Below, piece after piece: positions 6,332-64,000 of a stretch of 64,000 bases of DNA (position 1 is the stretch's first letter; each line of letters starts with the position of its first letter). The position numbers and the translations under genes are program-made. The DNA is taken from positions 78,953 to 142,952 of the forward strand of contig WREW01000002.1 in the NCBI GenBank assembly GCA_009779135.1, in the 5' to 3' direction. The stretch comes from Alphaproteobacteria bacterium. GTDB taxonomy: Bacteria > Pseudomonadota > Alphaproteobacteria > UBA9219. A model generated the notes under the pieces. The model had not been told where the DNA came from. It worked only from the letters and a program-made list of their open reading frames with translations, and made no database searches.

Positions 6332-6428
6332 TGTCATTGCGAGGCGGGCCGCAAGGCCCAACGAAGCAATCTCGGCAATATCGCAGGGATTGCCGCGTCA
6401 GGCCTAAAGGCCTTCCTCGCAATGACAG
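6332..6428. repeat. family-1 palindromic miniature repeat, copy 2
   Basis: gtcattgcgagg...cctcgcaatgacag between glmU and carD. Confidence 0.75.
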
Positions 6429-11905: not shown

Positions 11906-12004
11906 GTCCTTCTTTAGAATAGGGGATTGTGGGGGTTTTCGGTTCTTTTGCTATCGTAAGGCGTGTGGTAGTCTAGTACAGACAATTTAAAGAAAGGAAA
12001 TCTT

Positions 12005-13303: not shown

Positions 13304-13407
13304 GTCCTTCTTTAGAATAGGGACTTGCGGGGTTTTTCGGCTCTTTTGCTATCGCAAGGCGTGTGGTAGCTTTTATTTGTGAGATTCTTTTTTTGCTGCG
13401 GTCGCTT

Positions 13408-14094: not shown

Positions 14095-14110
14095 CGAAAG
14101 GACTCTTGTC

Positions 14111-14833: not shown

Positions 14834-14846
14834 GAAAGGGTTGTCC

Positions 14847-15491: not shown

Positions 15492-15495
15492 GGGG

Positions 15496-17364: not shown

Positions 17365-17402
17365 GGTTTTAGGTTAGACACATGACACAGGAAGGGAATC
17401 TT

Positions 17403-18305
17403 ATGCGTTACGTCTCACGCTTTATGCTTATGGTTGTGACTTTGTGTTTGCTGCCCGGGTATGCTGTTGCAGTGGAATCATCTTATTTGGAATCACAAAA
17501 AAAAGCTGCTGAGCAGGGCGATGCCATGGCACAGTTCAAGCTAGCAGATACATATTTTTCTGGTCGTGGCGGTGTGCCGGCAGACGAATCTCAAGCGGCG
17601 GTATGGTATCACAAAGCTGCCGATCAGGGGCTTGCTCTAGCACAATTCAAGTTAGGCTTTATGTATTTTGAGGGCCGCGGCGTGCCAAAAGACGAAGTTC
17701 AGGCGGCGAAATGGTATCGCAAAGCGGCTGAGCAGGGGTATCGGAAGGCACAGAACGAGTTAGGTCATATGTATTATTATGGCCGTGGCGTAGCGCAAGA
17801 CTACGTCAAGGCGGTGGAATGGTATCGCAAAGCAGCGGAGCAGGGATATAATCATACCAGATTAGGCCATATGTATGCTGAGGGCCTCGGCGTGCCGCAA
17901 GATGATGACCAGGCGGTGGCGTGGTATCTCAAAGGGCTTGAGAAGGCGAATGAAGACTCGATGTATGTTTTAGGAACTATGTATTATCATGGTACGCCTT
18001 CTAATGCTATGCATAATTATATTAACGGCAAAAATGCGCATACTGACAACGATGTGCGGAAAGACTATGCTAAAGCGGCAATATGGACTCGCAAGGCTGC
18101 TGAGCGGGGATATGCTCCTGCGCAGTTTAGATTAGCCCATATGTATGCTGATGGTCTTGGCGTTCCACAAGATGAAGCTCAGGCGGAAGCATGGCATAAC
18201 AAGGGCTGCGCCTTGTCGCGTGAATCCAGCGACCGTACAATTGTCAATAGTGGACGCGCTCACCAATGTGACAGGAATACACCTTGTTTGAAGCACCTGA
18301 GGTAA
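17403..18305 (+). CDS. secreted Sel1-repeat protein
   Basis: signal peptide; Sel1 repeats. Confidence 0.75.
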   Translation: MRYVSRFMLMVVTLCLLPGYAVAVESSYLESQKKAAEQGDAMAQFKLADTYFSGRGGVPADESQAAVWYHKAADQGLALAQFKLGFMYFEGRGVPKDEVQAAKWYRKAAEQGYRKAQNELGHMYYYGRGVAQDYVKAVEWYRKAAEQGYNHTRLGHMYAEGLGVPQDDDQAVAWYLKGLEKANEDSMYVLGTMYYHGTPSNAMHNYINGKNAHTDNDVRKDYAKAAIWTRKAAERGYAPAQFRLAHMYADGLGVPQDEAQAEAWHNKGCALSRESSDRTIVNSGRAHQCDRNTPCLKHLR

Positions 18306-18327
18306 ATGACACAGAGAAGGGAATCTT

Positions 18328-18840
18328 ATGCGTTACGTTTTCCTCCTTATGCTTGTAACTATGTGTTTTCTGTCTGGACGCGCTATTGCGCATCTTCCAT
18401 CCGGAGCGCAAGATTTTGATTTGAGTTTTGGGGTGCCGCAGGATGATGCTCAGGCGATGGAGTGGTGGCATAGATCTGCGGCGCGGAATGCTGGGGTGGA
18501 GAATCTTTTTGGGTGGGGAGCGTTGCCGGAAGATGATGTTCGGGCGGTGGCACGGTTGCGTAAGGCGGCTGATGAGGGGCAGGCCAGTGCGCAATTTCTT
18601 TTAGGCACGATGTATGCGGATGGTCGCGGAGTGCCGCAGGATGATGAGCTGGCGATTGTGTGGTGGAGCAAGGCTGCTGCCAAGGGCGATGCCGGCGCGC
18701 AGACTAATTTAGGTATAAGTTATTTTAATGGTCTCGGCATGCCGCAGGATCAGCAGAAGGGTTGCGACTTGTTGCGGGAAGCTGGTGAGCAGGGGTTTGC
18801 TCCTGCTGTTGGGATTTATGGGAGGCTTTGTAATCCATAG
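18328..18840 (+). CDS. small secreted Sel1-repeat protein
   Basis: signal peptide; 3-4 Sel1 repeats. Confidence 0.65.
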   Translation: MRYVFLLMLVTMCFLSGRAIAHLPSGAQDFDLSFGVPQDDAQAMEWWHRSAARNAGVENLFGWGALPEDDVRAVARLRKAADEGQASAQFLLGTMYADGRGVPQDDELAIVWWSKAAAKGDAGAQTNLGISYFNGLGMPQDQQKGCDLLREAGEQGFAPAVGIYGRLCNP

Positions 18841-21977: not shown

Positions 21978-22124
21978 CTGCCGAGATTGCCGCGTCAGTC
22001 CGCCTGCGGCGGCTTTCCTGCCAATGACAGTTTTTTCTTGTCATTGCGAGGAAGGCCGTAAGGCCTGACGCGGCAATCTCTGTATTGATGTTGCGGGAAT
22101 TACTTCGTTCCTCACAATGACAAG
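21978..22124. repeat. family-1 repeat, rearranged/composite copy 3
   Basis: partial inverted half (gagattgccgcgtcag ... ccaatgacag) followed by a full gtcattgcgagg...cctcacaatgacaag unit. Confidence 0.65.
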
Positions 22125-22244
22125 AGAGGAGGGCGAGTTATTGCGGCGCGGGATGGGTTATATATTGAAACTATTAATATGGTTAATCTTATTGACATGT
22201 TCGGGCAAAAAGGCAAAATGGGCGGGGAAAGGGGGATTCCTTAG

Positions 22245-22559
22245 ATGTCAAAAGTAACGTTATCAGCAAAAGAATACAAAGAAGCTTGCTTTCACATAGT
22301 TGCTATCTCTGCGTATGTGACAATATTAAAACATGGATTTGGTGTGCAGGTACCGGAAGCCCTCAATTCTGTCGCTGTTTGGGGCGGGGCTGTTGCTCTG
22401 GGCGCAGGAATTATTGCGGAAATTATACACCAAAATCAGCGCAAAAAGGAAGAGGCCACACCGAAACCGCCCAGACTAACTTTTAAGCAACTAGCTTATG
22501 ATGAGGAACGAAAGAATAGAGGGCTTCCCCCCATTCAGCGTTCTAACAGAAGCCCGTAA
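22245..22559 (+). CDS. small membrane protein (paralog of 63455..63739)
   Basis: 104 aa, 2 TM; ~70-bp upstream region identical to that of 63455..63739. Confidence 0.5.
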   Translation: MSKVTLSAKEYKEACFHIVAISAYVTILKHGFGVQVPEALNSVAVWGGAVALGAGIIAEIIHQNQRKKEEATPKPPRLTFKQLAYDEERKNRGLPPIQRSNRSP

Positions 22560-22560
22560 A

Positions 22561-23247
22561 TCATCCGTTTTTAGGCGTTTTGGGTTTGTCTTTTTTGCTC
22601 TGATCTTTTTCTCGTTTTGGCGTTGATGATGTTTCTTCTTTCAAATTGCTTGCGCTTAGTTCTTGCCATACCGTTTTCAAAGTCTTTTTCCATGGGTCAC
22701 GAAAATTATAAGCCGTACATGTTGCAAAGGTACCCCCAGCCGCAATAAAAGGAAGTTCCTTATTTGCAGGGAACATCTTCACACATAAGCTAAAAACCGC
22801 TGTAGCAGGAAGCATGCAGTAATGCCAGAGTTTGAAAAGAGAAAACTTTTTCTTTTTCTCTTCTTGCTCAAGCTTTTCTATGTCTTGTGTCAACATATTT
22901 CCTAAAGTTTGAAAACCAACTGTCAGGGCTTTAAGGCTTACTTTATGTTCTGGAAGCTTTCTATATAAAACAGAATAATGCCAAGCAGGATTCTTCAAAA
23001 GCCGATTCCAATTTTTATATAGTTGAAAGTTGCGTTGTATTTCTCTGAAAGAGTCATCACGAAGTGTTTTTGCTTCATCGGCTGTATGGGTTTTTTGAAG
23101 AAAATTGTGAATCTCTTCTTTTGCCTTCCACAGGGAATGCTCTTTCTTCTTCAGCACAAGGGGGATTGCTTTATCATGAAGCCGCATAAGCTTTTTATGA
23201 TAAGCAAGACGCTGTTTGAAATGGCGAAAGGGTAAGGTGGTATTCAT
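22561..23247 (-). CDS. hypothetical basic membrane protein (paralog of the partial ORF at 63785..64000)
   Basis: 228 aa; AT-rich; Lys-rich; C-terminal TM segment; tail ...KTPKNG. Confidence 0.5.
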   Translation of the reverse strand: MNTTLPFRHFKQRLAYHKKLMRLHDKAIPLVLKKKEHSLWKAKEEIHNFLQKTHTADEAKTLRDDSFREIQRNFQLYKNWNRLLKNPAWHYSVLYRKLPEHKVSLKALTVGFQTLGNMLTQDIEKLEQEEKKKKFSLFKLWHYCMLPATAVFSLCVKMFPANKELPFIAAGGTFATCTAYNFRDPWKKTLKTVWQELSASNLKEETSSTPKREKDQSKKDKPKTPKNG

Positions 23248-23343
23248 GGGCTTATTGTACTCCCTTAATGTAAATATTTGATTACTTACAATGGTTTCAT
23301 GCTTAAATGTTGTTGTATTTCACTGGGTTAGGTTGGGCCTGGC

Positions 23344-24912
23344 CTAGATATGCACGCCCATGGGGGGGGCGGGTTCTTGCCAGTTTAGCCAGTTTTGGCG
23401 GCCTTTTTGAAAAATCAAAACGCCTGTCAGGCCGAGGGCTTTGAGCATGTCGGTTGTGACCGCTTGAAGTTCCTGAACCAGATCATCGGGAAGGGGGTTT
23501 TCGCTGCGCAGGACGAGATCTAGTTTTTTTGTTTGTGAGAGGCCGTCGAGTTGTAGCGCGCCCAGATGTGACAGGTTCATGGTGACGACAAAACGTGTTC
23601 TTACGATTTTTCCTTTTTCATTGTCGTGGTGGCTGTCTTGTCTTACGCATAGTTCCAAAAGCTCGTAATGGCCTTCGTGCCAGAGGGGGACGGGGTAGGC
23701 CTGCCATTCGCCTACGCGCCCGTCAAATCGCGTGACGCCGCGCAGGCTTTCAAAAGAGTCTATCAAAGTTTTACGAATCTGCATCTGGCCGCTTTCCTGA
23801 AGCTGGCGCATCACGGGCGGGCCGAGCCAGTCATCCAGATTGCCGCCTTTAAGCGCCGCAAGCAGAAAAAGAAGCGTACCCGCAAGACGGGCTTGCGGCG
23901 CGGGAATGTGCGTTTGCGTGAAAGTCGATGTTGCCGGCGCCAGCGTTTGCGTTAACTGCTCCAGCGTTTCCAAAAGCGGGTGTCTTTGGCGCGGCTGCGC
24001 GGTCGGAAACAAGGTGGGTTGTAAAACAGGTTCTTCATCAGGCACAAAACTGCCGACAATTTTTGTGCCGACAGGCAGGTTGCTGTCGGTTTTGGCGACA
24101 AAGAACTTTCCGTCCGATTTAATCAAAGGCTGCTGATCGGGACTGCGCGCTACAATCATGGCGCGGACATGCGTGGAGCTTGTCACGCGCGGCCAGTCTT
24201 CCTGAGGTTTGAGAATCTTGATGATGTGAAACCGCATGGGCGGTTCTTGCACCGGCAAAGGTGGTTTCTCAGCTTGTTTGGCTGGGGCGGCTGTAAGTTT
24301 GTTGTCAAACAACTCGATCTTAACGCTCTGGCCTTCGCGTAAAATGCTTGGTTCGGATGAAGGGAGCGGCGTGGCGGGCGCAGGCGCGGAAGGCATGGGC
24401 GCTTGCGTTTGTGTTTGCGCCTGCGGCGAAAGTGAGATCCATGCTGAATCCGAAGCCTCCCAAGCGGAGGTCGGTGTGTTGATTGTGGTCGGGAAAGGCT
24501 GCGGCAACGGCTTTGCGTCCGGCTGCACGGCTTTGTCAGGGGCGGGGATAAACAAGATTGATTTTTGCGGCGCGTGTCCTTCCTGAATAAGAACCTCGAT
24601 AAGGGGGCCTGTGTTTTTTTGGGTTGTAAAAAGAGTCTCCAAGGCCTGCAAGGCTTCTTCCTGCGCCTGCACCGCCACAAACTTGAGCGTGCCGAGCGCC
24701 GTGCGCATCAAAAGCATATCGCGGGAAAGAAGATCAATCAGACGACCGCTTACCGACAAAGAGCGCGACAATGTCACAAGATTGTCAGGCGCGTCTATCA
24801 GCAAAGCGGGGATCGTATAAGGGGCGGACGCGCGGGAAGGGGATGATATTTGTATTGTGCGCTGCACGTCTCTTAAAATATCGGGCTGCCCTGTGGTTGC
24901 GCTGTCTTTCAT
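23344..24912 (-). CDS. proline/glutamine-rich flagellar protein, FliK-like (hook-length control)
   Basis: last gene of the flagellar class II cluster; P/Q/T-rich central region; C-terminal region resembles the Flg_hook domain (LSHLGALQLDGL...LDLVLRSENP...LQELQ). Confidence 0.4.
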   Translation of the reverse strand: MKDSATTGQPDILRDVQRTIQISSPSRASAPYTIPALLIDAPDNLVTLSRSLSVSGRLIDLLSRDMLLMRTALGTLKFVAVQAQEEALQALETLFTTQKNTGPLIEVLIQEGHAPQKSILFIPAPDKAVQPDAKPLPQPFPTTINTPTSAWEASDSAWISLSPQAQTQTQAPMPSAPAPATPLPSSEPSILREGQSVKIELFDNKLTAAPAKQAEKPPLPVQEPPMRFHIIKILKPQEDWPRVTSSTHVRAMIVARSPDQQPLIKSDGKFFVAKTDSNLPVGTKIVGSFVPDEEPVLQPTLFPTAQPRQRHPLLETLEQLTQTLAPATSTFTQTHIPAPQARLAGTLLFLLAALKGGNLDDWLGPPVMRQLQESGQMQIRKTLIDSFESLRGVTRFDGRVGEWQAYPVPLWHEGHYELLELCVRQDSHHDNEKGKIVRTRFVVTMNLSHLGALQLDGLSQTKKLDLVLRSENPLPDDLVQELQAVTTDMLKALGLTGVLIFQKGRQNWLNWQEPAPPMGVHI

Positions 24913-46460: not shown

Positions 46461-46561
46461 TGTCATTGCGAGGAAGGCCGCCGCAGGCGGATTGACGCGG
46501 CAATCTCTTCAACATCGCCGAGATTGCCGCGTCAGGCCTAAAGGTCTTCCTCGCAATGACA
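46461..46561. repeat. family-1 palindromic repeat, copy 4
   Basis: followed by a family-3 hairpin agctctccccctcgcgggggagggctttg at 46572..46600. Confidence 0.75.
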
Positions 46562-48292: not shown

Positions 48293-50992
48293 ATGTCCAC
48301 ACAAACAAAATGGGTTTATTCGTTCGGAGACGGCCATGCTGAAGGGCGCGCGGATATGCGCAATCTGCTGGGCGGCAAAGGGGCCGGTCTTGCGGAAATG
48401 TGTATGCTGGGGCTGCCTGTTCCCTCGGGCTTTACTATCACAACGGACGTCTGCACCTATTTCTACGCGCATGACCGCCTTTATCCCGAAAGCTTGAAGG
48501 GTGAAGTAAATAACGCTCTTGCGGAGGTGGAAAAAGCGGTCGGCTGCGGCTTTGGCGATCCGGCCAATCCTTTGCTGCTTTCGGTGCGCTCCGGCGCGCG
48601 GGCGTCCATGCCCGGGATGATGGATACCATCCTTAATCTCGGCCTGAATAACGCGACCGTGGAAGGTCTTGCCAAAATCAGTCAGGATGCGCGTTTTGCT
48701 TATGACAGCTATCGCCGCTTTATTCAAATGTACAGCGCGGTGGTGCTTGATATTTCTCTGCACAAGTTCGAAGACATTATCGAAGACGTCAAGCGCGCGC
48801 GCGGGTTTGCGCTTGATACCGAGATGACGGCTCATGACTGGCGCGAGGTTGTCACGGCCTATCTTCAGATCGTGCAAAAAGAACGCGGCAAAGCCTTCCC
48901 GCAGGATGTTCATGAGCAGCTCTGGGGCGCCATCGGCGCGGTGTTTGGTTCTTGGATGAACCAGCGCGCGATTACTTACCGCCGCTTGAATGATATTCCT
49001 GCGGACTGGGGCACGGCTGTTAATGTTCAGGCGATGGTGTTCGGCAATAAGGGCGAGGATTGCTGCACGGGCGTTGCCTTTACGCGCAACCCTTCCACGG
49101 GTGAGAACTCTTTTTACGGCGAATATCTTGTCAATGCTCAAGGTGAAGATGTTGTTGCCGGTATTCGCACGCCCCAGCATCTGACGATCAAGGGCAAAGA
49201 GGAAAATGACTCGGATCTTCTGGCCATGGAAGAGGTGATGCCGGATGTCTTTAAACAGCTTAATGATGTGCGCTTGAAACTGGAGTCACATTACCGCGAC
49301 ATGCAGGATATTGAGTTCACCGTCCAGCACGGCAAGCTTTATATGCTGCAAACCCGCACCGGAAAACGCACGGCGATGGCGGCTTTGCGGATTGCGGTTG
49401 AAATGGTGAAAGAAGGCACAATCGGCAAGGAAGAGGCTATTAAGCGTATCGAGCCTTCTTCATTGGATCAGCTTTTGCACCCGACACTTGATCCCAAAGC
49501 TGAGCGGCAGGTGATTGCCAAGGGTCTGCCTGCTTCCCCGGGCGCGGCTTCAGGCATTGTTGTCTTTACGGCTGACGAGGCCGAGGATATGGCGGGCAAA
49601 GGCAGAAAAGTTATTCTCTGCCGCGTTGAAACAAGCCCCGAAGATATTCACGGCATGCATGCCGCGCAGGGTATCGTGACAAGTCGCGGCGGTATGACAA
49701 GTCATGCTGCTGTTGTGGCGCGCGGCATGGGGCGCGCCTGTGTCGCGGGCGCGGGCGAGCTTTCCATGGACTATGCCAAGGGCGAGATGCGCGTGAAGGA
49801 CATCATTGTTAAAGCGGGCGAGGCCATCACGATTGACGGCGCGACGGGCGAGATCATGCTGGGCGAAGTTCCTTCGGTACAGCCCGAGCTTTCCGGCGAT
49901 TTTGCGACTTTGATGCAGTGGGCCGACAGCGTGCGCACATTGAAAGTCCGCACCAATGCCGAAACGCCTTTGGATGCGCGCACAGCCGTCAAGTTCGGCG
50001 CCGAGGGCATCGGCCTTTGCCGCACGGAACACATGTTTTTTGATACAAGTCGCATCATTGCGATGCGCGAGATGATTTTGGCGGAAAACACGCAAGGGCG
50101 GCGCAAGGCTTTGGACAAGCTTTTGCCGATGCAACAAAAGGATTTTGAGGATCTCTTCACCATTATGGACGGGCTTCCTGTGACGATCCGCCTTCTGGAC
50201 CCGCCTTTGCATGAGTTCCTGCCCAAAACAAAAGCGGAAATCGAAGATGTCGCCAAATATGCCGGTGTCGATGTGGCGCAGGTTGAACGGCGCGCGGCGA
50301 TGCTGCATGAAACCAATCCCATGCTGGGGCATCGCGGATGTAGGCTCGGCATTTCTTATCCCGAGATTTCCGAGATGCAGGCGCACGCTATTTTCGGTGC
50401 CGTGATTGCCATGAAGAAACAGGGGAAAACTGTGCTTCCTGAAGTGATGATTCCTCTTGTCGCGCTGAAAAAGGAATTGGATATTCTGGCAAAAGTCGTC
50501 CACGATGCGGCGGATGCAATGATGAAGGAGTCCGGCATAAAGTTTGACTATATGGTCGGCACGATGATCGAGCTGCCGCGCGCGGCGCTGCGCGCCGGCG
50601 GGATTGCGCAGACGGCGGAGTTCTTCAGCTTCGGCACAAATGATCTGACTCAAACGACTTTCGGTTTAAGCCGCGATGACAGCGCGTCTTTCCTTCCTGA
50701 TTATTATAGAACGGGGATTATGGCGCTGGATCCGTTTGTCACCATCGACCAAGACGGCGTGGGCGAGCTTATCAAAATCGCCTCCGAACGGGGCCGCGCG
50801 ACACGCGAGGATCTCAAGCTCGGCATATGCGGCGAGCATGGCGGCGATCCGGCCTCTATCCGCTTTTGCCACAAGCTTGGTTTGAATTATGTGTCATGCT
50901 CGCCTTACCGCGTTCCTATTGCGCGTCTGGCGGCAGCGCAGGCCGCGATCGAAAATGACCGCGACGTTCAGGCGCGGCTTAACGCGGCGTAA
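48293..50992 (+). CDS. ppdK: pyruvate, phosphate dikinase
   Basis: KWVYSFGDG N-terminus; phosphohistidine domain (GGMTSHAAVVARGMG); PEP-utilising C-terminal domain. Confidence 0.9.
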   Translation: MSTQTKWVYSFGDGHAEGRADMRNLLGGKGAGLAEMCMLGLPVPSGFTITTDVCTYFYAHDRLYPESLKGEVNNALAEVEKAVGCGFGDPANPLLLSVRSGARASMPGMMDTILNLGLNNATVEGLAKISQDARFAYDSYRRFIQMYSAVVLDISLHKFEDIIEDVKRARGFALDTEMTAHDWREVVTAYLQIVQKERGKAFPQDVHEQLWGAIGAVFGSWMNQRAITYRRLNDIPADWGTAVNVQAMVFGNKGEDCCTGVAFTRNPSTGENSFYGEYLVNAQGEDVVAGIRTPQHLTIKGKEENDSDLLAMEEVMPDVFKQLNDVRLKLESHYRDMQDIEFTVQHGKLYMLQTRTGKRTAMAALRIAVEMVKEGTIGKEEAIKRIEPSSLDQLLHPTLDPKAERQVIAKGLPASPGAASGIVVFTADEAEDMAGKGRKVILCRVETSPEDIHGMHAAQGIVTSRGGMTSHAAVVARGMGRACVAGAGELSMDYAKGEMRVKDIIVKAGEAITIDGATGEIMLGEVPSVQPELSGDFATLMQWADSVRTLKVRTNAETPLDARTAVKFGAEGIGLCRTEHMFFDTSRIIAMREMILAENTQGRRKALDKLLPMQQKDFEDLFTIMDGLPVTIRLLDPPLHEFLPKTKAEIEDVAKYAGVDVAQVERRAAMLHETNPMLGHRGCRLGISYPEISEMQAHAIFGAVIAMKKQGKTVLPEVMIPLVALKKELDILAKVVHDAADAMMKESGIKFDYMVGTMIELPRAALRAGGIAQTAEFFSFGTNDLTQTTFGLSRDDSASFLPDYYRTGIMALDPFVTIDQDGVGELIKIASERGRATREDLKLGICGEHGGDPASIRFCHKLGLNYVSCSPYRVPIARLAAAQAAIENDRDVQARLNAA

Positions 50993-51985
50993 AGGCGGTT
51001 CGATAAAAATCGGGGTCTTTTATTCTTGTCTTGATTTGCTCTGGCGTCAGGCTATGTTTAAGTGCTATGGCGGTGGCCAAGCGACGGCAATCTTGATCTG
51101 AAAGGTTATTTAGGCCGCCTTTTTGAAGTTTTTTCAATATCGCTATCCCGTTGAAGATAGGGTTGTCGGCATGGATGATGGTGTTTACGTCATCGTAATT
51201 TTCCTGAAGCTTATAAAGCGTTCGCGCAACATGGGGCCAATTTTGACGTTTAATATGGGATAGAAGACTATTTGCCTCTTTCATGCTTTCATAAGTGTCG
51301 TGTTCGACAATGAATCTGCGGGGTACGCCATCATTCAGATCCGTTAAGAACGCAAGGACGTCTTCTACCAGCCTATCCGTGTTTTTGCCTAACTTCGCCA
51401 CTTTAATCATGGCATAAACATCGGCTATGTTTTCATTGAGATGTTTGCCGGCTTTTTCATTTTGATCTGTGTAGAAAAACTCATGAAACAACATATGGGG
51501 GGAGGTAGAATCGAGCAAGACAATAACATTGCTTTGATCAGCGGAAGCGTTGGGCATTTTCAATATAAGCGGGGTTTTAAAAATGCGGATAGGAAACTCG
51601 TTTCCGATTGAAGCTTGAAAAGCGCTTAAGCCCATGGACTTTGCTAGAAGTATCATGGACGCAAGTGTAGAAATCTTGTTGCGTGACATGGAAAGTTGTG
51701 CATCTTCCAAAATCCCACAAAGAAGAAAATGCTGGTCACCTGAAAGATTTGGCATTTTGCTGCCGTCAATAATGATGATCTTTTGTCTAGACGCTTTTCT
51801 ATCTCGGGTATATTCCGAAAGACTTCATTGACAGCCTTGTGCCAGTCGGATGTCGGGTTTTTCTCAGGGGACAGCGTGACATCATGAAAAGGCAGCCCCC
51901 TTCCCATAAGCGAAGGCAACCCAAATGTTACCGCCGCAGCCGCAATAACCGACCAATTTATTATCTTTTTAACGGAAGCTTTCAT
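50979..51985 (-). pseudogene. family-X paralog A, frameshifted and motif-degenerate
   Basis: signal-peptide exon (51985..~51770) and body (51755..50979) lie in different frames; 1-nt loss inside an A5 run; the HExxH equivalent is HEFFY. Confidence 0.6.
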
Positions 51986-52066
51986 GCCCGCATTGTACTT
52001 TTTTCTGCGAAGATTTCATTAGTTTTAATAGTTTCATTGTGAGTATGGTTATTTTTCCCTCTCTCT
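51986..52066 (-). promoter_or_regulatory. conserved family-X promoter module (copy for paralog A)
   Basis: GAAAAATAACCATA...GAAACTATTAAAA(C/G)TAATGAAA...; -10-like TACAAT. Confidence 0.5.
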
Positions 52067-52170
52067 TGTCATTGCGAGGAGGGCCGCCGCAGGCGGATTG
52101 ACGCGGCAATCTCGGCAACATCAAGAGCGCGATTGCCGCGTCAGGCCTTATGGCCTTCCTCGCAATGACA
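52067..52170. repeat. family-1 palindromic repeat, copy 5
   Basis: directly upstream of the paralog A promoter module. Confidence 0.75.
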
Positions 52171-52187
52171 AGTGGGGGGGGGCCGCG

Positions 52188-53507
52188 TTATTCCGGTGTG
52201 AGCTTGGGGATGGGGACTGTGACTGTGCTCTTGCTGGGCCTTTGTGCTTCTTCTTCTTTTATGCTTTCATTGGCGCGTATAGCCGGTTTAAATGCGGGAT
52301 TATTCGCTTCCGGATCGTCCTTATACCAATAGTAAGTCTTATTCCATGAATCTCTGGCATCCCCTTTTGGCACGTCGTCGCCAAGCGCGGCGTCTTTTAA
52401 ATCTTTGATCTGTTCCGGCGTCAGACTATGTGTGCTTGCTATAAGACCGGCTATGCGATGGCACGTTTTATCCGGAAGTTTTTCAAAACCGTTGTCTTTG
52501 AGTTCTTTCAATATCGCTTGCTTTTCCTGATCGTCGAAGGTAGGCTTATCGGCCTCGATTATGTTATAGCCCTTCTTGTTATTGTATTCTTCTTGAAGTC
52601 CAGAAAGGATTTTATCAACCCTGTCCCATTTTTTATGTTTAGCTTGTATACAAAAATCTTTCGTTACCGACAGGCTTTTATAGGCGTTGTAAGCTATAAA
52701 GTTGTCAGCCTTATCGGCAGCATTCGGATCGCTGTAGAGCTTGTTTCTAAAATTGTAAGTTGAACGCAGGATTCCATCTTCTGCTACTCCTAAGGTACTT
52801 ACGCCTAATTGCTCCATTTTAATCATGGCGTAAGATTCTGCCATATTTTCCTTGTGATTTGTTCGGAGGGACTGGAGCATTGCAGGCGTATTTTTATCGA
52901 TGTCGCCTGTAGGAGCATAAAAAACATTTAAGAAAGGATTGATCGTCTTATCCTGTCCGTCTATTTGTGTTGGAACCGACTGGGTTAAATGGCCAACCTC
53001 GTGAAACAGCGTCTGAATATTTTTCTTATCTACGACAACAACGCTGGTTCGATCTGAAAAGGGATTATCCTCAACCGAAGTTCCTAAAAAAGGTGTGGAA
53101 CGATAGTTTCCAATTGAAGTGCAAAAACCGCCCAAGTTTTTTTCTTCGACTTCAAGCAACGCGGCTGAAAGGCGGTTAATCTTGCCTTCCGCTATGGGAG
53201 CATTTGAGTTTTTTAGAACCTTGCTAAATCCATCATGTGACGGTTTTTCACCCTTCAAAGCTTCTTTTATTTTGCCATAGTCAAGAAAGACAACTTCTTG
53301 CCCTATCATCTTTTCCGTTTCGCCTTTATTCCGAAAGACTTCATTGACAGCTCTGCTCCATTCGGGGTTTTTATCAGGGAAGATCAGGATATCGTGAAGG
53401 GGGGCTTTTTCTGCAAGGGAAGGCGTTGCCAACAGCGTTGCCGAGGCCACCGCAAGGGCTGCCGATTTGATGCTTTTGGTTGCCATAGGTTTATCGTCGT
53501 TTTCCAT
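52188..53507 (-). CDS. family-X secreted HExxH protein, paralog B
   Basis: signal peptide; FHEVGHL; ENMAESYAMIKMEQLG; C-terminal ...STVTVPIPKLTPE; begins 8 bp after the paralog C stop. Confidence 0.7.
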   Translation of the reverse strand: MENDDKPMATKSIKSAALAVASATLLATPSLAEKAPLHDILIFPDKNPEWSRAVNEVFRNKGETEKMIGQEVVFLDYGKIKEALKGEKPSHDGFSKVLKNSNAPIAEGKINRLSAALLEVEEKNLGGFCTSIGNYRSTPFLGTSVEDNPFSDRTSVVVVDKKNIQTLFHEVGHLTQSVPTQIDGQDKTINPFLNVFYAPTGDIDKNTPAMLQSLRTNHKENMAESYAMIKMEQLGVSTLGVAEDGILRSTYNFRNKLYSDPNAADKADNFIAYNAYKSLSVTKDFCIQAKHKKWDRVDKILSGLQEEYNNKKGYNIIEADKPTFDDQEKQAILKELKDNGFEKLPDKTCHRIAGLIASTHSLTPEQIKDLKDAALGDDVPKGDARDSWNKTYYWYKDDPEANNPAFKPAIRANESIKEEEAQRPSKSTVTVPIPKLTPE

Positions 53508-53515
53508 GGCCTAGG

Positions 53516-55063
53516 CTATTGCGGTGTGAGTTTGGGGGTGGGAGCCGTGACTGTGCTCCTGCCGGCGGGTCTTTGCGGTTCGTCAAAGCTCGCCACCTTC
53601 AAAGGCTCCGCCGCCACGCCCAAAGGCTCCGCCGCTTTTTTTGCCGGTTCAAAAGCGGTGTTGTTGTCTTTATCCGCTACAGCGGCTTCTTGCGCTTCTT
53701 TTTTTATGCTTTCATGGGCAAGTATGGCCGGTTTAAATGCGGTGTTATTGTCTTTATCCACCACAGCGTCTCCTTGTTTAAGAAGGTCGTACGTGTCACT
53801 CCATGCTTTGGTGGCGGCCTTTCCTTGCGGCACCTTTCCCAAGGTTGCGTTGTCAAAATCGTTCATATCAGACAAAGACGGGCTATGCTTTGTTGCCAAA
53901 GCTGACGCAAGAGAAAGGCTGTCTTTGTCTGTAAGAGCATTCAGTCCACCTGTTTCTAACTTGGCAAAAATAGCTTGTCCATTGAAGGGATGTTTAACCT
54001 CGGATCGTGATTCCGTGTTGTCATAAGTTTCTTGAAGACCATCAAGCTTTGACTTAACATTATCCATTTTCCCGTTCTTAATATCGTCCAGAAGAGAGAT
54101 TGTCGCAAACAGAGTTTCATGGGTGTTATGCCCTTGGTACGACATCGGGAGTTCTTGACTCGTTGAGAGGTAAGTTGAGTCAAAAAGACGGGCTTGCGCT
54201 TGTTTAGTGGCAGCTGTGTAATTTCCTTTTTGCGCCATTTTAATCGCGGCGTAAGAATCTGACATATTTTCCTGGCGATTTTCCCGCAGCTTCCAAGCTT
54301 CACCTTTATTATCTGTTTTAGGGACTTTCATGAAAAACGCGGGTTCCTCTACTTCAGTATTGTAAAGATGCGCTTTTTCGTGAAATGCTGTAAAAGCGGC
54401 CGCTTCATCATATGGCTGTTTTACAAAATTAGAATCTGTTTTTGAAAAATCAACGCCTGTACCTTCGGGACAAGACAACCTCTCACGCCAAACAGTATTT
54501 CCGTCTTTGTTATTTTCACCGAACGCGACAAAAACTTTTATGTTGTTACCATCTCTGTCTTTTGTTGAAATAACACCAGAGTTGACCTGATCGAAAGAAG
54601 GGTCACATACTGGTTCGTATCCTATATCCTGTCTTAAATGTCTTCCTATACTAGCCGCGAGTATGGCACTCTCTCCCTTTTCCGCAGAAACGCCTGAATC
54701 CTCCAGAATGCCCTTTACGGCAGAGTCGTCGTTTTCCCTTTCACTTAAAATCTTTAAAATCTCATCTACGTCATGTTTTCCTGATTCCCCTTTGCCATGC
54801 GCCAGCGCGGCAGATCTTTTTTTCACTTCTCGCCCATCAATAAAATAAATCTTTTGTCCTATCGCCTGTTCTATTTCTTCTTTTTGAGAAACAATTTCTT
54901 TTTTAGCCTCATCCACCAAGGATATGGGCTTTACTGCGACAGGATTGTCGGGAATCTTTGCTGCTCCGGCAGGCAGCGGTAATAAGCTACATGCCGCTAC
55001 GGCTGTAGCGGCTGTCAGGTTTACTACCCTTTTGAGCAGGGGTTTTTTATCGTCGTTTTCCAT
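53516..55063 (-). CDS. family-X secreted HExxH protein, paralog C
   Basis: signal peptide; FHEKAHL; ENMSDSYAAIKMAQ; C-terminal ...STVTAPTPKLTPQ. Confidence 0.7.
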   Translation of the reverse strand: MENDDKKPLLKRVVNLTAATAVAACSLLPLPAGAAKIPDNPVAVKPISLVDEAKKEIVSQKEEIEQAIGQKIYFIDGREVKKRSAALAHGKGESGKHDVDEILKILSERENDDSAVKGILEDSGVSAEKGESAILAASIGRHLRQDIGYEPVCDPSFDQVNSGVISTKDRDGNNIKVFVAFGENNKDGNTVWRERLSCPEGTGVDFSKTDSNFVKQPYDEAAAFTAFHEKAHLYNTEVEEPAFFMKVPKTDNKGEAWKLRENRQENMSDSYAAIKMAQKGNYTAATKQAQARLFDSTYLSTSQELPMSYQGHNTHETLFATISLLDDIKNGKMDNVKSKLDGLQETYDNTESRSEVKHPFNGQAIFAKLETGGLNALTDKDSLSLASALATKHSPSLSDMNDFDNATLGKVPQGKAATKAWSDTYDLLKQGDAVVDKDNNTAFKPAILAHESIKKEAQEAAVADKDNNTAFEPAKKAAEPLGVAAEPLKVASFDEPQRPAGRSTVTAPTPKLTPQ

Positions 55064-55155: not shown

Positions 55156-55293
55156 CTTGTCATTCTCGGGGCTTGCGGATGACGAGAGGGGAGATTGTCA
55201 TTGCGAGGAAGGCCTTCAGGCCTGACGCGGTAATCTCTGCAACATCGCCGAGATGGCGCCCGTTGGGCCTTGCGGCCCGCCTCGCAATGACAG
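55156..55293. repeat. composite repeat: family-2 fragment plus family-1 copy 6
   Basis: gtcattctcggggcttgcggatgacgag followed by gtcattgcgagg ... cctcgcaatgacag. Confidence 0.7.
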
Positions 55294-55311
55294 TTAGGGG
55301 GGGCTTGGGGC

Positions 55312-56481
<1,170 letters not shown>

Positions 56482-56487
56482 TTACGG

Positions 56488-59387
<2,900 letters not shown>

Positions 59388-59486
59388 TTAAGCATCTTCT
59401 TTCGCTTTAAAAACTTGCCGAAAACAAAAGGTTAAAGAGTTTAGCGCATGGCCGCAAGCCAGTCCAAAGGAAAGAGGGGTCGTCCT

Positions 59487-59569
59487 ATAAGTTAATGAAA
59501 AATAACCACGTTTAGAGTGAAATTATTAAAAGTAATAAAAGATTTATCAAAAAGAGGTATAATAGGGCC
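59487..59569 (+). promoter_or_regulatory. conserved family-X promoter module (copy for paralog D)
   Basis: TTAATGAAAAATAACCACGTTTAGAGTGAAATTATTAAAAGTAATAAAAGATTTATC...GGTATAATAGGGCC then GTG. Confidence 0.55.
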
Positions 59570-60859
59570 GTGAAAGACGACGTTAAAAAATCCTCGCCGC
59601 TCGTTAGATTTACGGCGGCTACGATGGCTGCGCTCACGGTTGGGCTTTTGCCTGCTGATGCAAAAGGCGGGTATGATATTATGTACTCCCCTGACCCGAA
59701 ATCTGAAGCGGGGAAAGTTGTAAAGCAGCTCGCTCCGCATATGGCTGCGGTGGAGGAAGTGACAGGACAAGAGTTTCTTCCTATTATCGACGGCAGCAAA
59801 ATCGATAACATCTTTAACCAAAAGCAAATGCCTTTCAATCTATCTAATCTCCGCGATGTTTTAGAAAACGCGGACTTCCCTACACCCTTAACGCCCAACA
59901 AAATAGGAAATATTGCATTCCATATACTTCAGGCAAAGGCGCTTGAGTATAGAGCTTTGCATGTTTCAGTCGGGAAATCGCACTTGGTTGTCTTATTTGA
60001 TCCTTCTGATCCCAAAATACTGGGTCACGAGATCGTAGGACATGGGAATCAAGAATATGCAAAGGACGGTAACTTACACTCTTCTGTTTTAAAAGTCCCT
60101 GATGTTTCGAAACCCCAGATTTCTTTAAAAGCTTTTGACAAGATCTCGGATCCTGACCAGCTTTTCCTTTTAACAAACTACCGCGAAAATATGGCGGATG
60201 TTGCCGACATGCTTACAAGGGCGCAAAGGGGCGAAGGGATAAAAGGCATGGCGGCTGAAAATCTTTTGCAATCTACGATCCTTTTTAGAAAAGTGCTTTA
60301 TAACAATCCGCAGGCTTTGGATTACCAAGTCACAGAACATAATACTTACAGAAGTCTGGCGGCGACAGAAACTTTTCTGTCCCATGTTAAAGAGAAAGAC
60401 TGGCCAAAGGTTGCGCGAGCTCTTTATACAATCCAAGAAAAATACAACGAGATGACGGCTTTGGATGTTTTGATTCCTGTTGATAATCCCATCTTCCCCG
60501 GGCGGGTGATTATGGACAAGCTCCAAGAAGAAGGCGACATAAAAAATCTTTCACCGCAAGAAACCGCTCATCTGGCTGCCGGTTTTGCGTGCATGTATAG
60601 TCTTAATCCGCAAGAGGGCAAGGATTTTAACGCCGCCGCGCTTGGCGATGAAGCACCCGTAGGAGCCGCCCGCGGCGCGTGGCTTCAGGTAGGCCGTATG
60701 CTGAACAATCCGGTATTAAAGAATGATCCTGAGATGCAGGAACTCCGGAATGATCCCGCCTATCAACAGGTCACGAGCGCGCGTGAAAGCATAGAACCGC
60801 CTGCCAGAAAACCGCGTGGCCATAAGGTTTCCTCTTCTTCCAAATATACGCCGCAATAA
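59570..60859 (+). CDS. family-X secreted HExxH-like protein, paralog D (GTG start)
   Basis: signal peptide; GHEIVGHG (HExxxH variant); ENMADVADM; C-terminal ...KYTPQ. Confidence 0.65.
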   Translation: MKDDVKKSSPLVRFTAATMAALTVGLLPADAKGGYDIMYSPDPKSEAGKVVKQLAPHMAAVEEVTGQEFLPIIDGSKIDNIFNQKQMPFNLSNLRDVLENADFPTPLTPNKIGNIAFHILQAKALEYRALHVSVGKSHLVVLFDPSDPKILGHEIVGHGNQEYAKDGNLHSSVLKVPDVSKPQISLKAFDKISDPDQLFLLTNYRENMADVADMLTRAQRGEGIKGMAAENLLQSTILFRKVLYNNPQALDYQVTEHNTYRSLAATETFLSHVKEKDWPKVARALYTIQEKYNEMTALDVLIPVDNPIFPGRVIMDKLQEEGDIKNLSPQETAHLAAGFACMYSLNPQEGKDFNAAALGDEAPVGAARGAWLQVGRMLNNPVLKNDPEMQELRNDPAYQQVTSARESIEPPARKPRGHKVSSSSKYTPQ

Positions 60860-60865
60860 ACAGAC

Positions 60866-61648
60866 TTAATCAATCAGGCCGTTCTTCCTAAGAAGATCGT
60901 AGCTGTCCTGATACCAGCGGCTGCCGGGGAAGTTGTGGCCCAAAACGGCGGCGGTTTTTTTGGCTTCATCCAAAATGCCCAGAGCGAGATAGGATTCAAC
61001 AAGCCGGTGCAAGGCTTCGGGAACGTGGCTGGTGGATTGGTAGCGCTCGACCACCGTGCGGAAACGGCCTACGGCTGCTGTGAAAAGTTTTTGTGTCATG
61101 TAATTGCGGCCGACTTCCATCTCGGCGCCGGCAAGGTGATCGTTGACGAGGTCAATTTTAAGTCTGGCATCACGCGCATAGGCCGTGTCAGGAAAACGAC
61201 GGATGATGGTCTGCAGCTCGGACAGCGCAAGATGCGCATAAGTCTGGTCACGCCGGACATCGGCGATGCGCTCATAATCGCTTAACGCCCGCAGATAGTA
61301 GGCATAGGCGATATATTCGCTCCCCGGGTGAAGGCGGATAAAGCTCTCCAGCGCTTTGATGGCCGCGTCATAATCGAGCGCCTCATACATGGCGTAAGCG
61401 CTCATCAACTGGCCGCGCGGGGCCCATTGCGAATATGGGTGCTGGCGCTCAATTTCCTCGAACTGCGTCGCAGCCTCCCGAAACAGGCGCTTTTCCATAA
61501 GGTTGAGGCCGTCATTGTAAAGAGCCTCGGCGGTTTTTTCGGACGGCTCCTCGGGCTTTTGGGAAGCGCATCCAACAAGAAGCCCCAAAGCCAGAAAAGC
61601 TACGGCCAAACGCGAAAAAGAGAAGGGTGGGAACATGCGCAGCATCAA
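60866..61648 (-). CDS. bamD: outer membrane protein assembly factor BamD
   Basis: lipoprotein signal (LLVGC); TPR-like YfiO/ComL domain. Confidence 0.8.
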   Translation of the reverse strand: MMLRMFPPFSFSRLAVAFLALGLLVGCASQKPEEPSEKTAEALYNDGLNLMEKRLFREAATQFEEIERQHPYSQWAPRGQLMSAYAMYEALDYDAAIKALESFIRLHPGSEYIAYAYYLRALSDYERIADVRRDQTYAHLALSELQTIIRRFPDTAYARDARLKIDLVNDHLAGAEMEVGRNYMTQKLFTAAVGRFRTVVERYQSTSHVPEALHRLVESYLALGILDEAKKTAAVLGHNFPGSRWYQDSYDLLRKNGLID

Positions 61649-61764
61649 CCTTTGAATCAGTTAGGTTCTTCTTTTACAACAGACCTTAGGCCGCTGCAAG
61701 ATTCTTGACTTTTTCGGTGTTTTTCCAGCATTATAAAAGGCATGTTTTCAAAGGGTAACCCTGT

Positions 61765-61998
61765 ATGCAGGTTCGTATTTTTCGCCCCGCCGCAAGCTTG
61801 ACGCAAGGCTCGCCTTGGGCCGATGCGTGGCGGCTTGAGGTTGTCAGCGCGATCCAGAAAAGGCCCGAGCCTTTCATGGGCTGGCTTGCGGCTGAGGACG
61901 GGCAAAGCACCATGAAAGGGCGCCTTGCTTTTGATACGCAGCAAGCGGCCATAGCCTTTGCGCAAAAGCAGGGCTGGTTGTTTGAGGTTGAGGAATAA
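61765..61998 (+). CDS. ETC complex I NDUFS4-like (AQDQ-family) small protein
   Basis: 77 aa; RIFRPAASLTQGS...WRLEV...PFMGW...RLAFDTQQAAIAFAQKQGW-FEV matches the bacterial NDUFS4-homolog pattern. Confidence 0.65.
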   Translation: MQVRIFRPAASLTQGSPWADAWRLEVVSAIQKRPEPFMGWLAAEDGQSTMKGRLAFDTQQAAIAFAQKQGWLFEVEE

Positions 61999-62005
61999 GG
62001 CCGGT

Positions 62006-63106
62006 TTATTGTAGCGTGTGGGCAGGGAAAGAAGTCGCAATTTTTGTACCTCTAACAGGTTCCTGCGATGCTTTCATGGTGCTTTCATAAGCGCGCACAG
62101 CCGGTTGAAATGCGGGATCATCCTTTGCCACATGGTCTTTCAGTAAATAATAAGTATGGCACCATTTTTTTTCGGCAGCGTCTTTTGGCGTTTCATCTCC
62201 AACTACAGCATCCATACAATCCTGTATATCTTTTTGCGTCTTGCCATTTCTGGCGGCCATAGCGGCAGCCAAAAGACAGCACTGTTTGTTGGTAAGCTTT
62301 TTTATGTCGCCGTCTTCAAGAACTTGCTCTATCTCCTGCCAGTTGACGGTGGAAATGTCGGACATAATAACGGTATTCTCGCGGTTCAAGGCATCGTAGC
62401 TTTCTTGAAGATCCAAAAAGATTGACCGGCTTACATTTTCATCCCTTCGGGATAAAAGGACGTTCATGCTCCCTATGCTTTCATGCGTGTCATGTTCTAT
62501 TCTGGACAATATTTCGTCCGGATTGTTTTTGTGCAAGGCTCTGGCAAAATAAGTTGCGGCCAGAAGATTTTGTTTTGCTATTCCCCGTGTATCGCCTTCG
62601 CATTGCGCCATTTTAATGACGGCCAAGCCATCGGACATATGTTCTTTATAATTTGTTTCTTTGGAAGCAATGAAATCTTGCGAGGTAGGATCATCTGCAG
62701 GAATCCGCAAGAAATGGTTGATGAGTTTGGCGCGTCCGTCCACTGATGTCCGAGTCAATATAACAGCGTGGCAAAGTTCGTGAAACATTGTAAAAGGATC
62801 TTTATCATTAATAACAACAAAGGTCGTCAGATCCTCTAACTTGCCAAGCGTGGCGCAAAAACCTGCCTCGTTCCTGTGTTTAAATATTCTGGCTTCAAGC
62901 GCATCAATTTTGTGCTGCGTCATATGAGGCAGTGAATCTTTCAGAACTCCGTGAGGATTATTTTGCAGTTTTGTGCCGTCAATGATGACAATCTCGCGCC
63001 CCAGCCATGTTTCCATCTCGCTCTTTAAAAGCAAGACTTCATTGATAGCCCTATCCGAAACGGATGTTGGGTTTTCTACAGTGGAGAATGTGATGTCATG
63101 TTTCAT
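62006..63106 (-). CDS. family-X HExxH protein, paralog E (no obvious signal peptide)
   Basis: FHELCHAVIL; EHMSDGLAVIKMAQ; C-terminal ...AHTLQ. Confidence 0.65.
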   Translation of the reverse strand: MKHDITFSTVENPTSVSDRAINEVLLLKSEMETWLGREIVIIDGTKLQNNPHGVLKDSLPHMTQHKIDALEARIFKHRNEAGFCATLGKLEDLTTFVVINDKDPFTMFHELCHAVILTRTSVDGRAKLINHFLRIPADDPTSQDFIASKETNYKEHMSDGLAVIKMAQCEGDTRGIAKQNLLAATYFARALHKNNPDEILSRIEHDTHESIGSMNVLLSRRDENVSRSIFLDLQESYDALNRENTVIMSDISTVNWQEIEQVLEDGDIKKLTNKQCCLLAAAMAARNGKTQKDIQDCMDAVVGDETPKDAAEKKWCHTYYLLKDHVAKDDPAFQPAVRAYESTMKASQEPVRGTKIATSFPAHTLQ

Positions 63107-63220
63107 AGCTCATTCCTTAGAATTATGGCCTTATTATACCTCATTTTCATGAATATTTCATTACTTTCAATAGTTTCTAGCCTGAATATGCTTATATTTC
63201 ATTGACTTACGATTCTTTTG
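63107..63220 (-). promoter_or_regulatory. conserved family-X promoter module (copy for paralog E)
   Basis: TCAATGAAATATAAGCATATTCAGGCTAGAAACTATTGAAAGTAATGAAATATTCATG...GGTATAATAAGGCC. Confidence 0.5.
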
Positions 63221-63342
63221 GGCTGGCTTGCGGTGGGGGGCGGGTAAAGCACTATGAGGGGACTCCTTGCTTTTGGTCTGCTCGCCGCCGCCATCAAGTT
63301 CGCGCAAAAATAGGGGTGGTTGTTTGAGGTTGGGGAATAAAG
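63221..63342 (+). pseudogene. degenerate duplicate of the NDUFS4-like gene 3' end (duplication footprint)
   Basis: ~80% identical to 61879..62000, including the stop context gttgtttgaggttg(a/g)ggaataa. Confidence 0.65.
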
Positions 63343-63454
63343 TTGGGTTATTTAGGTTTGGGATGGGCTATATATTGAAACTATTAATATGGTTAATCTC
63401 ATTGACATGTTTGGGGTAGAAAAGCAAAGTAGTTGGGGAAAGGAGGATTCCTTG

Positions 63455-63739
63455 ATGTCAAAATCATCAGAGATCTTAATCGATTTGTTTAAAACGGCTG
63501 CTAAAATTACGGGTACAATGGCTGTAATTATGAGCGTGCCGGCTTTATTCAATTATACGGGTGTAGAGGTGACAAAGCTTCCTTTTCCTGCTCAACTTGT
63601 TATATTTGGTGCCCATGTCGGCTTGTGTATGTGGGGAGTAAGTAATTTGCTAAAAATTGATTCAGATGTACAGCGCCGTTACAAGCAAAAGAAACCTGAA
63701 TCTTCAGGGGGGAAGTTTTCAGTATTGACTTTAAAATAA
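63455..63739 (+). CDS. small membrane protein (paralog of 22245..22559)
   Basis: ~94 aa, 2 TM; shared upstream module gggatgggytatatattgaaactattaatatggttaatctyattgacatgtt. Confidence 0.5.
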   Translation: MSKSSEILIDLFKTAAKITGTMAVIMSVPALFNYTGVEVTKLPFPAQLVIFGAHVGLCMWGVSNLLKIDSDVQRRYKQKKPESSGGKFSVLTLK

Positions 63740-63784
63740 TAATCTTATCGTGAACAAAAAGGGTTGCTTTTGTAATTTGTAACC

Positions 63785-64000
63785 TTATCCGTTTTTAAGT
63801 TTGCTGGAAACGTTTTTCTTGCCCAGCGGTTTTTCTTTTCGTTCTGAGGCTGCTGGATTTTCTTTTGGTGTAGAGAAGGGTGACAGAAAGCTGTTTTTTC
63901 TTTTTTTCTGGCTAAGCTCTTTCATCGTTTTTTTCCACAAATCTTTCAAGTGATGGCGATAAATGGTTGCGCCCATCACCGCACTGGCTGCAATAAGGAC
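63785..64000 (-). CDS. partial (runs off the window) paralog of the 22561..23247 protein
   Basis: VLIAASAVMGATIYRHHLKDLWKKTMKELS aligns with LPFIAAGGTFATCTAYNFRDPWKKTLKTVWQELS; both end in KNG. Confidence 0.5.
   Translation of the reverse strand, partial: VLIAASAVMGATIYRHHLKDLWKKTMKELSQKKRKNSFLSPFSTPKENPAASERKEKPLGKKNVSSKLKNG

Follow-up and report, generated by a model that had tools for sequence, protein, structure and literature searches.

An old, decayed duplicate of an NDUFS4-like gene end beside a family-X gene in an alphaproteobacterial genome

How did a gene of a lineage-specific family come to lie between two copies of the 3' end of a housekeeping gene? The case is found in the window analysed here, a stretch of 64,000 nucleotides (nt) from an Alphaproteobacteria bacterium (assembly GCA_009779135.1, contig WREW01000002.1, positions 78,953 to 142,952), near the right end of which an NDUFS4-like gene for a subunit of complex I of the electron transport chain (ETC) is followed by paralog E of a family here called X. 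A first-pass annotation had read the two copies as the footprint of an insertion of paralog E, made either with a long target duplication or by recombination between repeats. The pair is an old, decayed recombination relic and not a fresh insertion footprint, and recombination between repeats is the better of the two mechanisms proposed.

The duplicated gene end

The locus holds the following features, given in window coordinates.

61765 to 61998, plus strand: intact NDUFS4-like gene (ETC complex I subunit), 77 amino acids (aa), PF04800 (NDUS4)
61877 to 62010, plus strand: left, functional copy of the repeat (L), made of codons 38-77, the stop, a 7-nt spacer and the antisense stop of paralog E
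61878 to 61891, plus strand: core GGGCTGGCTTGCGG, the first of three exact copies in the array, codons M-G-W-L-A-A
62006 to 63106, minus strand: paralog E of family X (366 aa), HExxH motif present, no Pfam family, family-typical tail …PAHTLQ*
63107 to 63218, minus strand: promoter module of E, with a sigma-70-like ATGAAA-17-TATAAT and the motif GAAACTATTGAAAGTAAT
63192 to 63235, plus strand: 44-nt stretch across the junction of module and NDUFS4 fragment, repeated exactly 1378 nt downstream beside uvrC
63219 to 63352, plus strand: right, decayed copy of the repeat (R), an NDUFS4-like 3' pseudogene fragment
63348 to 63369, minus strand: antisense family-X tail remnant, the left end of the small open reading frame (ORF)/family-Y cassette, with a paralogous copy at 22139-22160
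63370 to 63739, plus strand: promoter and gene of a small membrane protein, 94 aa, gene at 63455 to 63739
63785 to 64000, minus strand: 3' part of orf239 (family Y), which leaves the window; contig L001 continues with the module of orf239, the third core, a 22-nt block and then uvrC

A repeat search pairs L and R directly over 134 nt without a gap, at 76% identity and a spacing of 1342 nt. When the left 134-mer was slid over all offsets on both strands of 72 kb, 102 of 134 positions matched at 63219, the next best offset gave 58/134, and the background was 33.6 ± 5.3 (z ~13). The duplication of the gene end, which had been placed at 61879-62000 and 63221-63342, is thus real and falls within this repeat; its right copy is degenerate, as had been described, and the identity of about 80% ascribed to it is slightly too high, with 95/125 positions (76%) in agreement over 61877-62001. 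The longest exact runs common to L and R reach about 15-18 nt at most, and the left start of the similarity may shift ~10 nt leftward if a 2-nt gap is allowed (CGAnnCTTT..TGGG). Past the NDUFS4-like stop codon a weaker similarity continues to roughly 62026 in L and 63369 in R. It takes in the spacer of 7 nt, then a stop in antisense, then ~20 nt from the antisense 3' tail of a family-X gene. Paralog E and its upstream module fill the interval between the copies, as annotated, and R runs on into the promoter of the small membrane protein, of which a paralogous copy lies at 22139-22245.

The two copies differ in their state. The NDUFS4-like protein matches PF04800 over residues 2-77 with an E-value of 6.6e-16 (58.8 bits, cut-off 31.9) and so belongs to the family, its MGW motif aligns with that of distant homologues, and it has identical entries in NCBI, ENA and Logan as well as an orthologue, P0002, that is 76% identical. 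Read in the frame of L, R has two in-frame stops, TAA at 63245-63247 (formerly CAA) and TAG at 63311-63313 (formerly CAG), both of them C>T changes. R is a pseudogene fragment, which appears to be non-functional and to decay neutrally.

The possibility that the repeat is a chimeric or duplicated contig end, or a chance similarity, is extremely improbable. The window does come from a metagenome assembly (the 172-kb contig ENA ERZ27257295 k141_1655050, which L001 follows to 8 kb past the window end; NCBI lists identical proteins with FWF24_ locus tags), and a second, independent assembly, the Logan contig L002 of SRR10512950, breaks at 63221, near the start of R. However, L002 is 100% identical over 55263-63221 and so confirms the left junction, paralog E and the module, and its end is where a k=31 unitig that enters the 44-nt exact repeat must stop (63192+30-1 = 63221); therefore, both copies of the 44-nt module repeat exist in the SRR10512950 sample. 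The end of L002 was also considered as strain variation, a reading set aside in favour of this graph break. Copies that are 76% identical, with exact runs of no more than 15-18 nt, cannot mislead an assembler working at k=141 or k=31, and a z of ~13 speaks against chance. Short-read assemblies of this locus will break at the 44-nt module repeat.

Array anatomy and the recurring joint

Between the NDUFS4-like gene and uvrC the locus consists of two head-to-tail units of 1342 and 1378 nt, which are delimited by three exact cores at 61878, 63220 and, beyond the window, the window-equivalent position 64598 (L001 12834). At one end of each unit stands a 3' piece of the NDUFS4-like gene with the 7-nt spacer and an antisense family-X tail, and at the other a promoter module of ~110 nt that finishes in the 14-nt core. 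The cargo is paralog E in unit 1 and the small membrane ORF with orf239 in unit 2, and the units show no similarity outside tail and module. A second repeat family, the module of E plus core against the module of orf239 plus core, extends over 114 nt at 82% identity with a spacing of 1378 and overlaps the L/R family by 20 nt. The homologous ends and the single novel joint, module to codon 38 at 63218/63219, are those of a segmental tandem duplication, and R may well stand where two such units of a small cassette array meet head to tail.

The joint is not confined to R. At other loci, too, the first 14-20 nt of R are found as the distal end of the promoter module: in gene orientation, the E, D and orf239 modules start with CCGCAAGCCAG(C/T)CCAAA…, the reverse complement of GGGCTGGCTTGCGG and thus of the first 14 nt of the repeat, and the module of orf228 has a degenerate version. 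The core agrees at 13/14 positions at the module end of D and at 14/14 at that of orf239, there followed by TGAGG, and a chance 14-mer at exactly that position of a module is implausible. Because the core is ordinary coding sequence (MGWLAA), which the relative described below has with one synonymous change, the modules most likely owe their core to the NDUFS4-like gene, via this joint, and not the reverse.

The second copy of the 44-nt repeat lies at the window-equivalent 64570-64613 (L001 12806-12849), and beyond the module of orf239 come the core with TGAGG, a 22-nt block TAAACTCTTTAACCTTTTGTTT and the start of uvrC. This module is chimeric. Its proximal part is of the family-Y type and nearly identical to that of orf228, and its distal 44 nt are identical to the module of E across the joint, a pattern that indicates recombination or gene conversion. 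Tail and module, as conserved cassette ends, could serve as homology arms. The motif GAAACTATTGAAAGTAAT is common to the modules of E, A, C, D, orf228 and orf239. In the modules (63125-63218 and others) two related motifs of ~19 nt, ATTTCATTACTTTCAATAG and ATTTCATTGACTTACGATT, stand ~41 nt apart upstream of a TATAAT/TACAAT box, which suggests a common transcription-factor-controlled regulon of orphan genes.

Two further places in the window carry parts of the same architecture.

22139 to 23375, no strand assigned: second small-ORF and family-Y cassette, with tail remnant, promoter, orf104, orf228 and a module with degenerate core
59422 to 59569, plus strand: upstream region of paralog D, with the 22-nt block at 59422-59443, the core relic CCGCAAGCCAGTCC at 59452-59465 (13/14) and the module of D

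In the cassette at 22 kb the tail remnant and the small-ORF promoter, 5' leader and start codon recur over 22139-22262, at the head of orf104 and orf228, and orf228 is 47-49% identical to orf239. In both two-gene cassettes (22139-23375, and 63348-64000 continuing to L001 12850) a small ORF on the plus strand converges on a family-Y gene. The promoter regions of the two cassettes are nearly identical, but the small ORFs, of 104 and 94 aa, are unrelated in sequence. The sequence TGGGGGGCGGGT at the 22-kb cassette, which occurs twice in 72 kb (shuffle p ~0.005) and is G-rich and close to the poly-G ends of miniature inverted-repeat transposable element (MITE)-like sequences, is only a hint of an R-type relic there. 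The block TAAACTCTTTAACCTTTTGTTT is an exact 22-nt repeat just upstream of both ligA (59422-59443, minus strand) and uvrC (L001 12856-12877), at each locus 8 nt from the core relic of a module, and may be either flanking DNA that was copied or an element, regulatory or terminal, that the two loci have in common. The block and the distal module were also considered as further decayed NDUFS4 sequence, and local alignment did no better than with shuffled sequences.

Family X itself has five paralogs in the window (50979-55063, 59570-60859, 62006-63106), which are 26-38% identical, conserve the HE of HExxH and end in similar tails (…PIPKLTPE*, …TPKLTPQ*, …KYTPQ*, …PAHTLQ*). A family-X profile run against 1.84 billion representatives returned the five paralogs and a single distant protein, P0008 (E 6e-10), at whose locus the promoter module is absent. 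Protein searches with the NDUFS4-like protein, E and orf239 returned only themselves, P0002 as the one orthologue and orf228, a paralog in the same genome. For E an AF2 model of moderate confidence (pLDDT 76) gave no significant match in the PDB, and no viral or defence-system matches were found. Judged by these searches, families X and Y are essentially orphan families.

Several paralogs show signs of rearrangement of their own. Paralog E is without the N-terminal signal-peptide-like segment of ~35 aa seen in B, C and D (52188-53507, 53516-55063, 59570-60859), carries between module and ATG an additional leader of 20 nt with a Shine-Dalgarno sequence of its own, and looks like a 5'-truncated copy re-fused to a module. 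Paralog A (50979-51985) is divided between two ORFs that overlap (50979..51755 and 51653..51985), has a degenerate HExxH (HEFFY) and is probably a frameshifted pseudogene. Paralog D (59382-60865) fills the slot between bamD and ligA, in which the nearest relatives have a RecN-type gene of 564 aa (SMC_N) in the opposite orientation (L005 10795-12489); here a family-X cassette seems to have taken the place of recN.

The wider region has features of its own. From 59382 to 64000, and on in L001 to 12880, it is roughly mirror-symmetric about the divergent bamD/NDUFS4 pair. On either side the order is a convergent family-X gene (6-7 nt between the stops), its module, the core, the 22-nt block and lastly a DNA-repair gene that faces outward (ligA left, uvrC right). 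Six palindromic MITE-like elements of ~90-100 nt (GTCATTGCGAGG … CCTCGCAATGAC), often beside poly-C/G runs, are scattered over the window as listed below; three of the six abut cassette modules (at 22 kb, upstream of A and upstream of C), and L002 begins within one of them, at 55263. Five repeat-rich paralogous proteins, two with Sel1 repeats, are clustered at 10826-18840 and have extensive internal repeats in common. The window contains dnaA (2659-4122), which puts the cassette-rich region no farther than ~60 kb from the probable replication origin.

4132 to 4230: MITE-like element
6333 to 6426: MITE-like element
22040 to 22121: MITE-like element
46462 to 46560: MITE-like element
52068 to 52169: MITE-like element
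55197 to 55291: MITE-like element

Age of the duplication and the one close relative

The sole close relative is the 606-bp contig L085 (ERZ27257305), which is 81% identical to the window from the 5' end of bamD through the intergenic region to the NDUFS4-like gene. When 185,579 species genomes were scanned with bamD as the anchor, 80 loci came back, with a best BamD identity of 66%, and none has NDUFS4, uvrC or family X beside bamD; a scan of JGI metagenomes with an NDUFS4 alignment gave only relatives of at most 45% identity, usable solely as protein outgroups.

In L085 the NDUFS4-like gene is present and E is not behind it. Downstream of the gene follow the 7-nt spacer, a tail remnant, a family-Y-type module fragment ATTACTTACAATGGTTT and the contig end, and the tail remnant is truncated at a point identical to that in R and in the 22-kb cassette. 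The stop, 7 nt, the antisense stop and ~20 nt of X-tail homology are found in all three versions (L, R and L085); the tail is the real C-terminus of E in L and a truncated remnant in R and L085. The first-pass annotation had supposed that the original order was the NDUFS4-like gene followed by the small-membrane-protein cassette, with E as a later arrival, and had proposed to look for an empty site in relatives. A site without E does exist in L085, but it has the same X-tail remnant and a module fragment, an R-type flank, and the duplicated segment in our genome already held the X tail. The L085 site is thus without E and yet, as far as its sequence tells, not a clean empty site, and it seems to reflect the same kind of cassette turnover.

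The two copies have been aligned and dated by their divergence, as had been proposed. Raw divergence is 24% between L and R, 23% between R and L085, 15% between L and L085, both of which are constrained as coding sequence, and 23% between our intergenic region and that of L085. Over 125 aligned nt, L and L085 agree against R at 19 sites, R and L085 against L at 10, and L and R against L085 at 9. L and R differ from each other at 30 sites, with the derived state in R at 19 of them and in L at 10. Because the L/R divergence equals the neutral divergence from L085, the duplication is estimated to be about as old as the split from the L085 lineage, and both copies appear to have changed since. An import of L from a distant donor was also considered and set aside, the silent divergence from L085 not being elevated in the 3' half of the gene (7/35 codons, against 9/24 in the 5' half). 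Distant outgroups (FDTKEEAIAYA) are nearer to L (FDTQQAAIAFA) than to R or L085 (…LAAA.(K/E)FA), which hints that R may be orthologous to the gene end of L085.

How the array may have arisen

Among the called genes of the 64-kb window and 9 kb beyond it, no integrase, transposase or recombinase Pfam family was found, and the genes are housekeeping ones (dnaA, flagellar, ribosomal proteins, ligA, uvrC, alaS, glmS). No terminal inverted repeats of the E insert were found, no transfer RNA (tRNA), Rfam or other known RNA family at the locus, and no Rfam match or structured element at the unit boundaries. The short identical target duplication, inverted repeats and transposase of a transposon or insertion sequence are lacking, the repeat being 134 nt long at 76% identity. 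No attC, intI or attI of an integron was found, and the cassettes have their own promoters. Direct repeats that include the intact 3' end of a target gene, as in genomic islands, are present, and no recombinase was found within the element or beside an attachment (att) site in this region. The 14-15-nt core is exact at the three array junctions; the L/R similarity does not stop there and continues for 120 nt at ~73-76%, and the 44 nt that the E and orf239 junctions share exactly look like a gene-conversion tract.

We favour, with middling confidence, homology-assisted tandem duplication or accretion, followed by swapping of cargo and decay. A family-X gene would already have been convergent to the NDUFS4-like gene; it was present when the segment was duplicated, because the repeat includes the spacer and the antisense tail of an X gene. 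One illegitimate event would then have created the joint, in which the distal end of the X promoter module abuts codon 38 of the NDUFS4-like gene, either in a tandem duplication via unequal sister-chromosome exchange or through a looped-out circle and its Campbell-type re-insertion by homologous recombination. The cargo of unit 2 would later have been exchanged via the shared tail and module sequences, and the redundant gene fragment would have decayed, with gene conversion keeping the module ends alike and seeding the joint elsewhere. This order of events, and a RecA-type mechanism independent of a recombinase, we infer. Like a segmental tandem duplication under concerted evolution, the array has near-equal units (1342 and 1378 nt), homologous ends, one novel joint, a decayed redundant gene fragment and an identical 44-nt tract that indicates gene conversion; unlike in such a duplication, the cargo is unrelated and the joint has been propagated to other chromosomal sites.

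Several observations weigh against tandem duplication. The units do not hold the same genes, and a second event, the replacement of cargo, is required. Behind the third core the NDUFS4-like sequence stops after only ~5 nt, which calls for either a deletion or a conversion tract that ended in non-homology. R and L085 agree at three amino-acid positions (61940-43, 61955-56), and L is nearer to the distant outgroups there. This sharing would fit R as the original resident end with L as a newcomer, or alternatively a duplication that predates the species split and was later lost in L085, the one relative compared, of which 78 nt of downstream sequence are available.

The main rival, which we consider unlikely, is integrase-mediated site-specific integration with tandem accretion, the units being decayed elements akin to cis-mobilizable elements (CIMEs) that targeted the 3' part of the NDUFS4-like gene at GGGCTGGCTTGCGG. 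Each incoming element would have brought its own gene 3' end and displaced the resident one, with an integrase in trans or since lost. CIMEs are without a recombinase of their own, and a cognate integrase must exist in the genome. The accretion of CIMEs, as well as of integrative and mobilizable elements (IMEs), at gene 3' ends, for example of ICESt1-type elements, has been reviewed (PMC5704250), and the anatomy here is similar, with an intact target gene, three direct repeats derived from its 3' end and sharing the core, two tandem units that they delimit, and no recombination genes in the units. The states that R and L085 share at 61940-43 and 61955-56 against L look derived, as if R were the displaced resident end. 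Some 9 kb past the window end there is a DUF736 gene, of a type characteristic of conjugative elements in alphaproteobacteria. Unlike in CIME accretion, however, no integrase or recombinase domain occurs among the called genes of these 73 kb, and the units are only ~1.35 kb long, with one or two genes each. The repeat is long (~134 nt) and diverged, with 73-76% similarity over ~120 nt beyond a 15-nt exact core in place of a short att site with sharp limits, the remainder of the gene end is missing at the third core, and the silent divergence of L from L085 is not elevated. The joint also occurs at unrelated loci with copied flanking DNA, and the core relic and 22-nt block beside D look like such copied DNA and not like secondary att sites.

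R could also be what is left of a complete second NDUFS4-like gene, born in an older whole-gene duplication, the 5' half of which was overwritten by E and its module. The extent of R is exactly that of the 40 C-terminal codons with the stop and the flank behind it, in register, and the divergence trichotomy of L, R and L085 allows an event older than the species split. We find this doubtful, since no trace of the 5' half exists anywhere in 72 kb, the left boundary of R is the module end, a joint that is found at other loci too and whose spread would still be needed, and the equal unit lengths and homologous unit ends are left without explanation. Very improbable is a long target-site duplication, produced by a staggered cut when the E cassette was inserted in the manner of a transposon. 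Direct repeats do immediately flank E and its module, but they are 134-150 nt long, and known bacterial target duplications measure 2-14 bp. Nor does the pair, at 24% divergence and without terminal inverted repeats or a transposase, fit a fresh, simple insertion into an X-free site with a long target duplication, since the supposed target already held the tail of an X gene, the core occurs three times and the first 14-20 nt of R travel with the module to other loci. Duplications of local targets longer than 100 nt were not seen flanking the family-X paralogs A-D.

In a further reading, which we likewise doubt, the low-GC X, Y and small-ORF orphans would form a true cassette system, each cassette bounded by a conserved promoter module of ~110-165 nt and, opposite, by a tail of ~22 nt, with tandem accretion at codon 38 via the 14-nt core and seeding from this 'nursery' to further places on the chromosome, relics of the NDUFS4 pseudogene being carried along. 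Its agent may be RecA alone, working via looped-out circles, or a recombinase that acts in trans or has gone unrecognised. The array resembles integron cassettes in its small one-gene units, which follow one another head to tail and have a conserved element at every boundary; it differs in the promoter that each unit has of its own, in the boundary element taken from housekeeping coding sequence, and in that no attC-like structured site or intI was found. In Neisseria, minimal mobile elements are cassettes between conserved housekeeping genes that are exchanged by flanking homology without mobility genes. Similarly, low-GC lineage-specific genes stand here between NDUFS4-like/uvrC, bamD/ligA and ppdK/ccrM with no mobility genes, and exchange by homology is plausible, but the homology arms appear to be cassette-borne (module and 3' tail) and not part of flanking housekeeping genes.

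For annotators, 63219-63352 is a pseudogene fragment. The wider lesson is an ordinary one, direct repeats of a gene end beside an insert being a known signature of recombination. Within this genome, R is a datable marker of the rearrangement of lineage-specific, promoter-equipped genes where no mobility genes are seen. The NDUFS4-derived joint is found at the array, beside D and, in degenerate form, at the family-Y cassette 40 kb away; therefore, promoter modules or whole cassettes have been copied along with flanking DNA, and this distribution argues for homology-driven shuffling over transposition. As an account of how the family spreads around the chromosome, the idea first put forward stands in so far as the joint at other loci fits a record of cassette movement, and falls in so far as that movement was not simple insertion. 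The repeat is a modest clue to the shuffling of lineage-specific genes.

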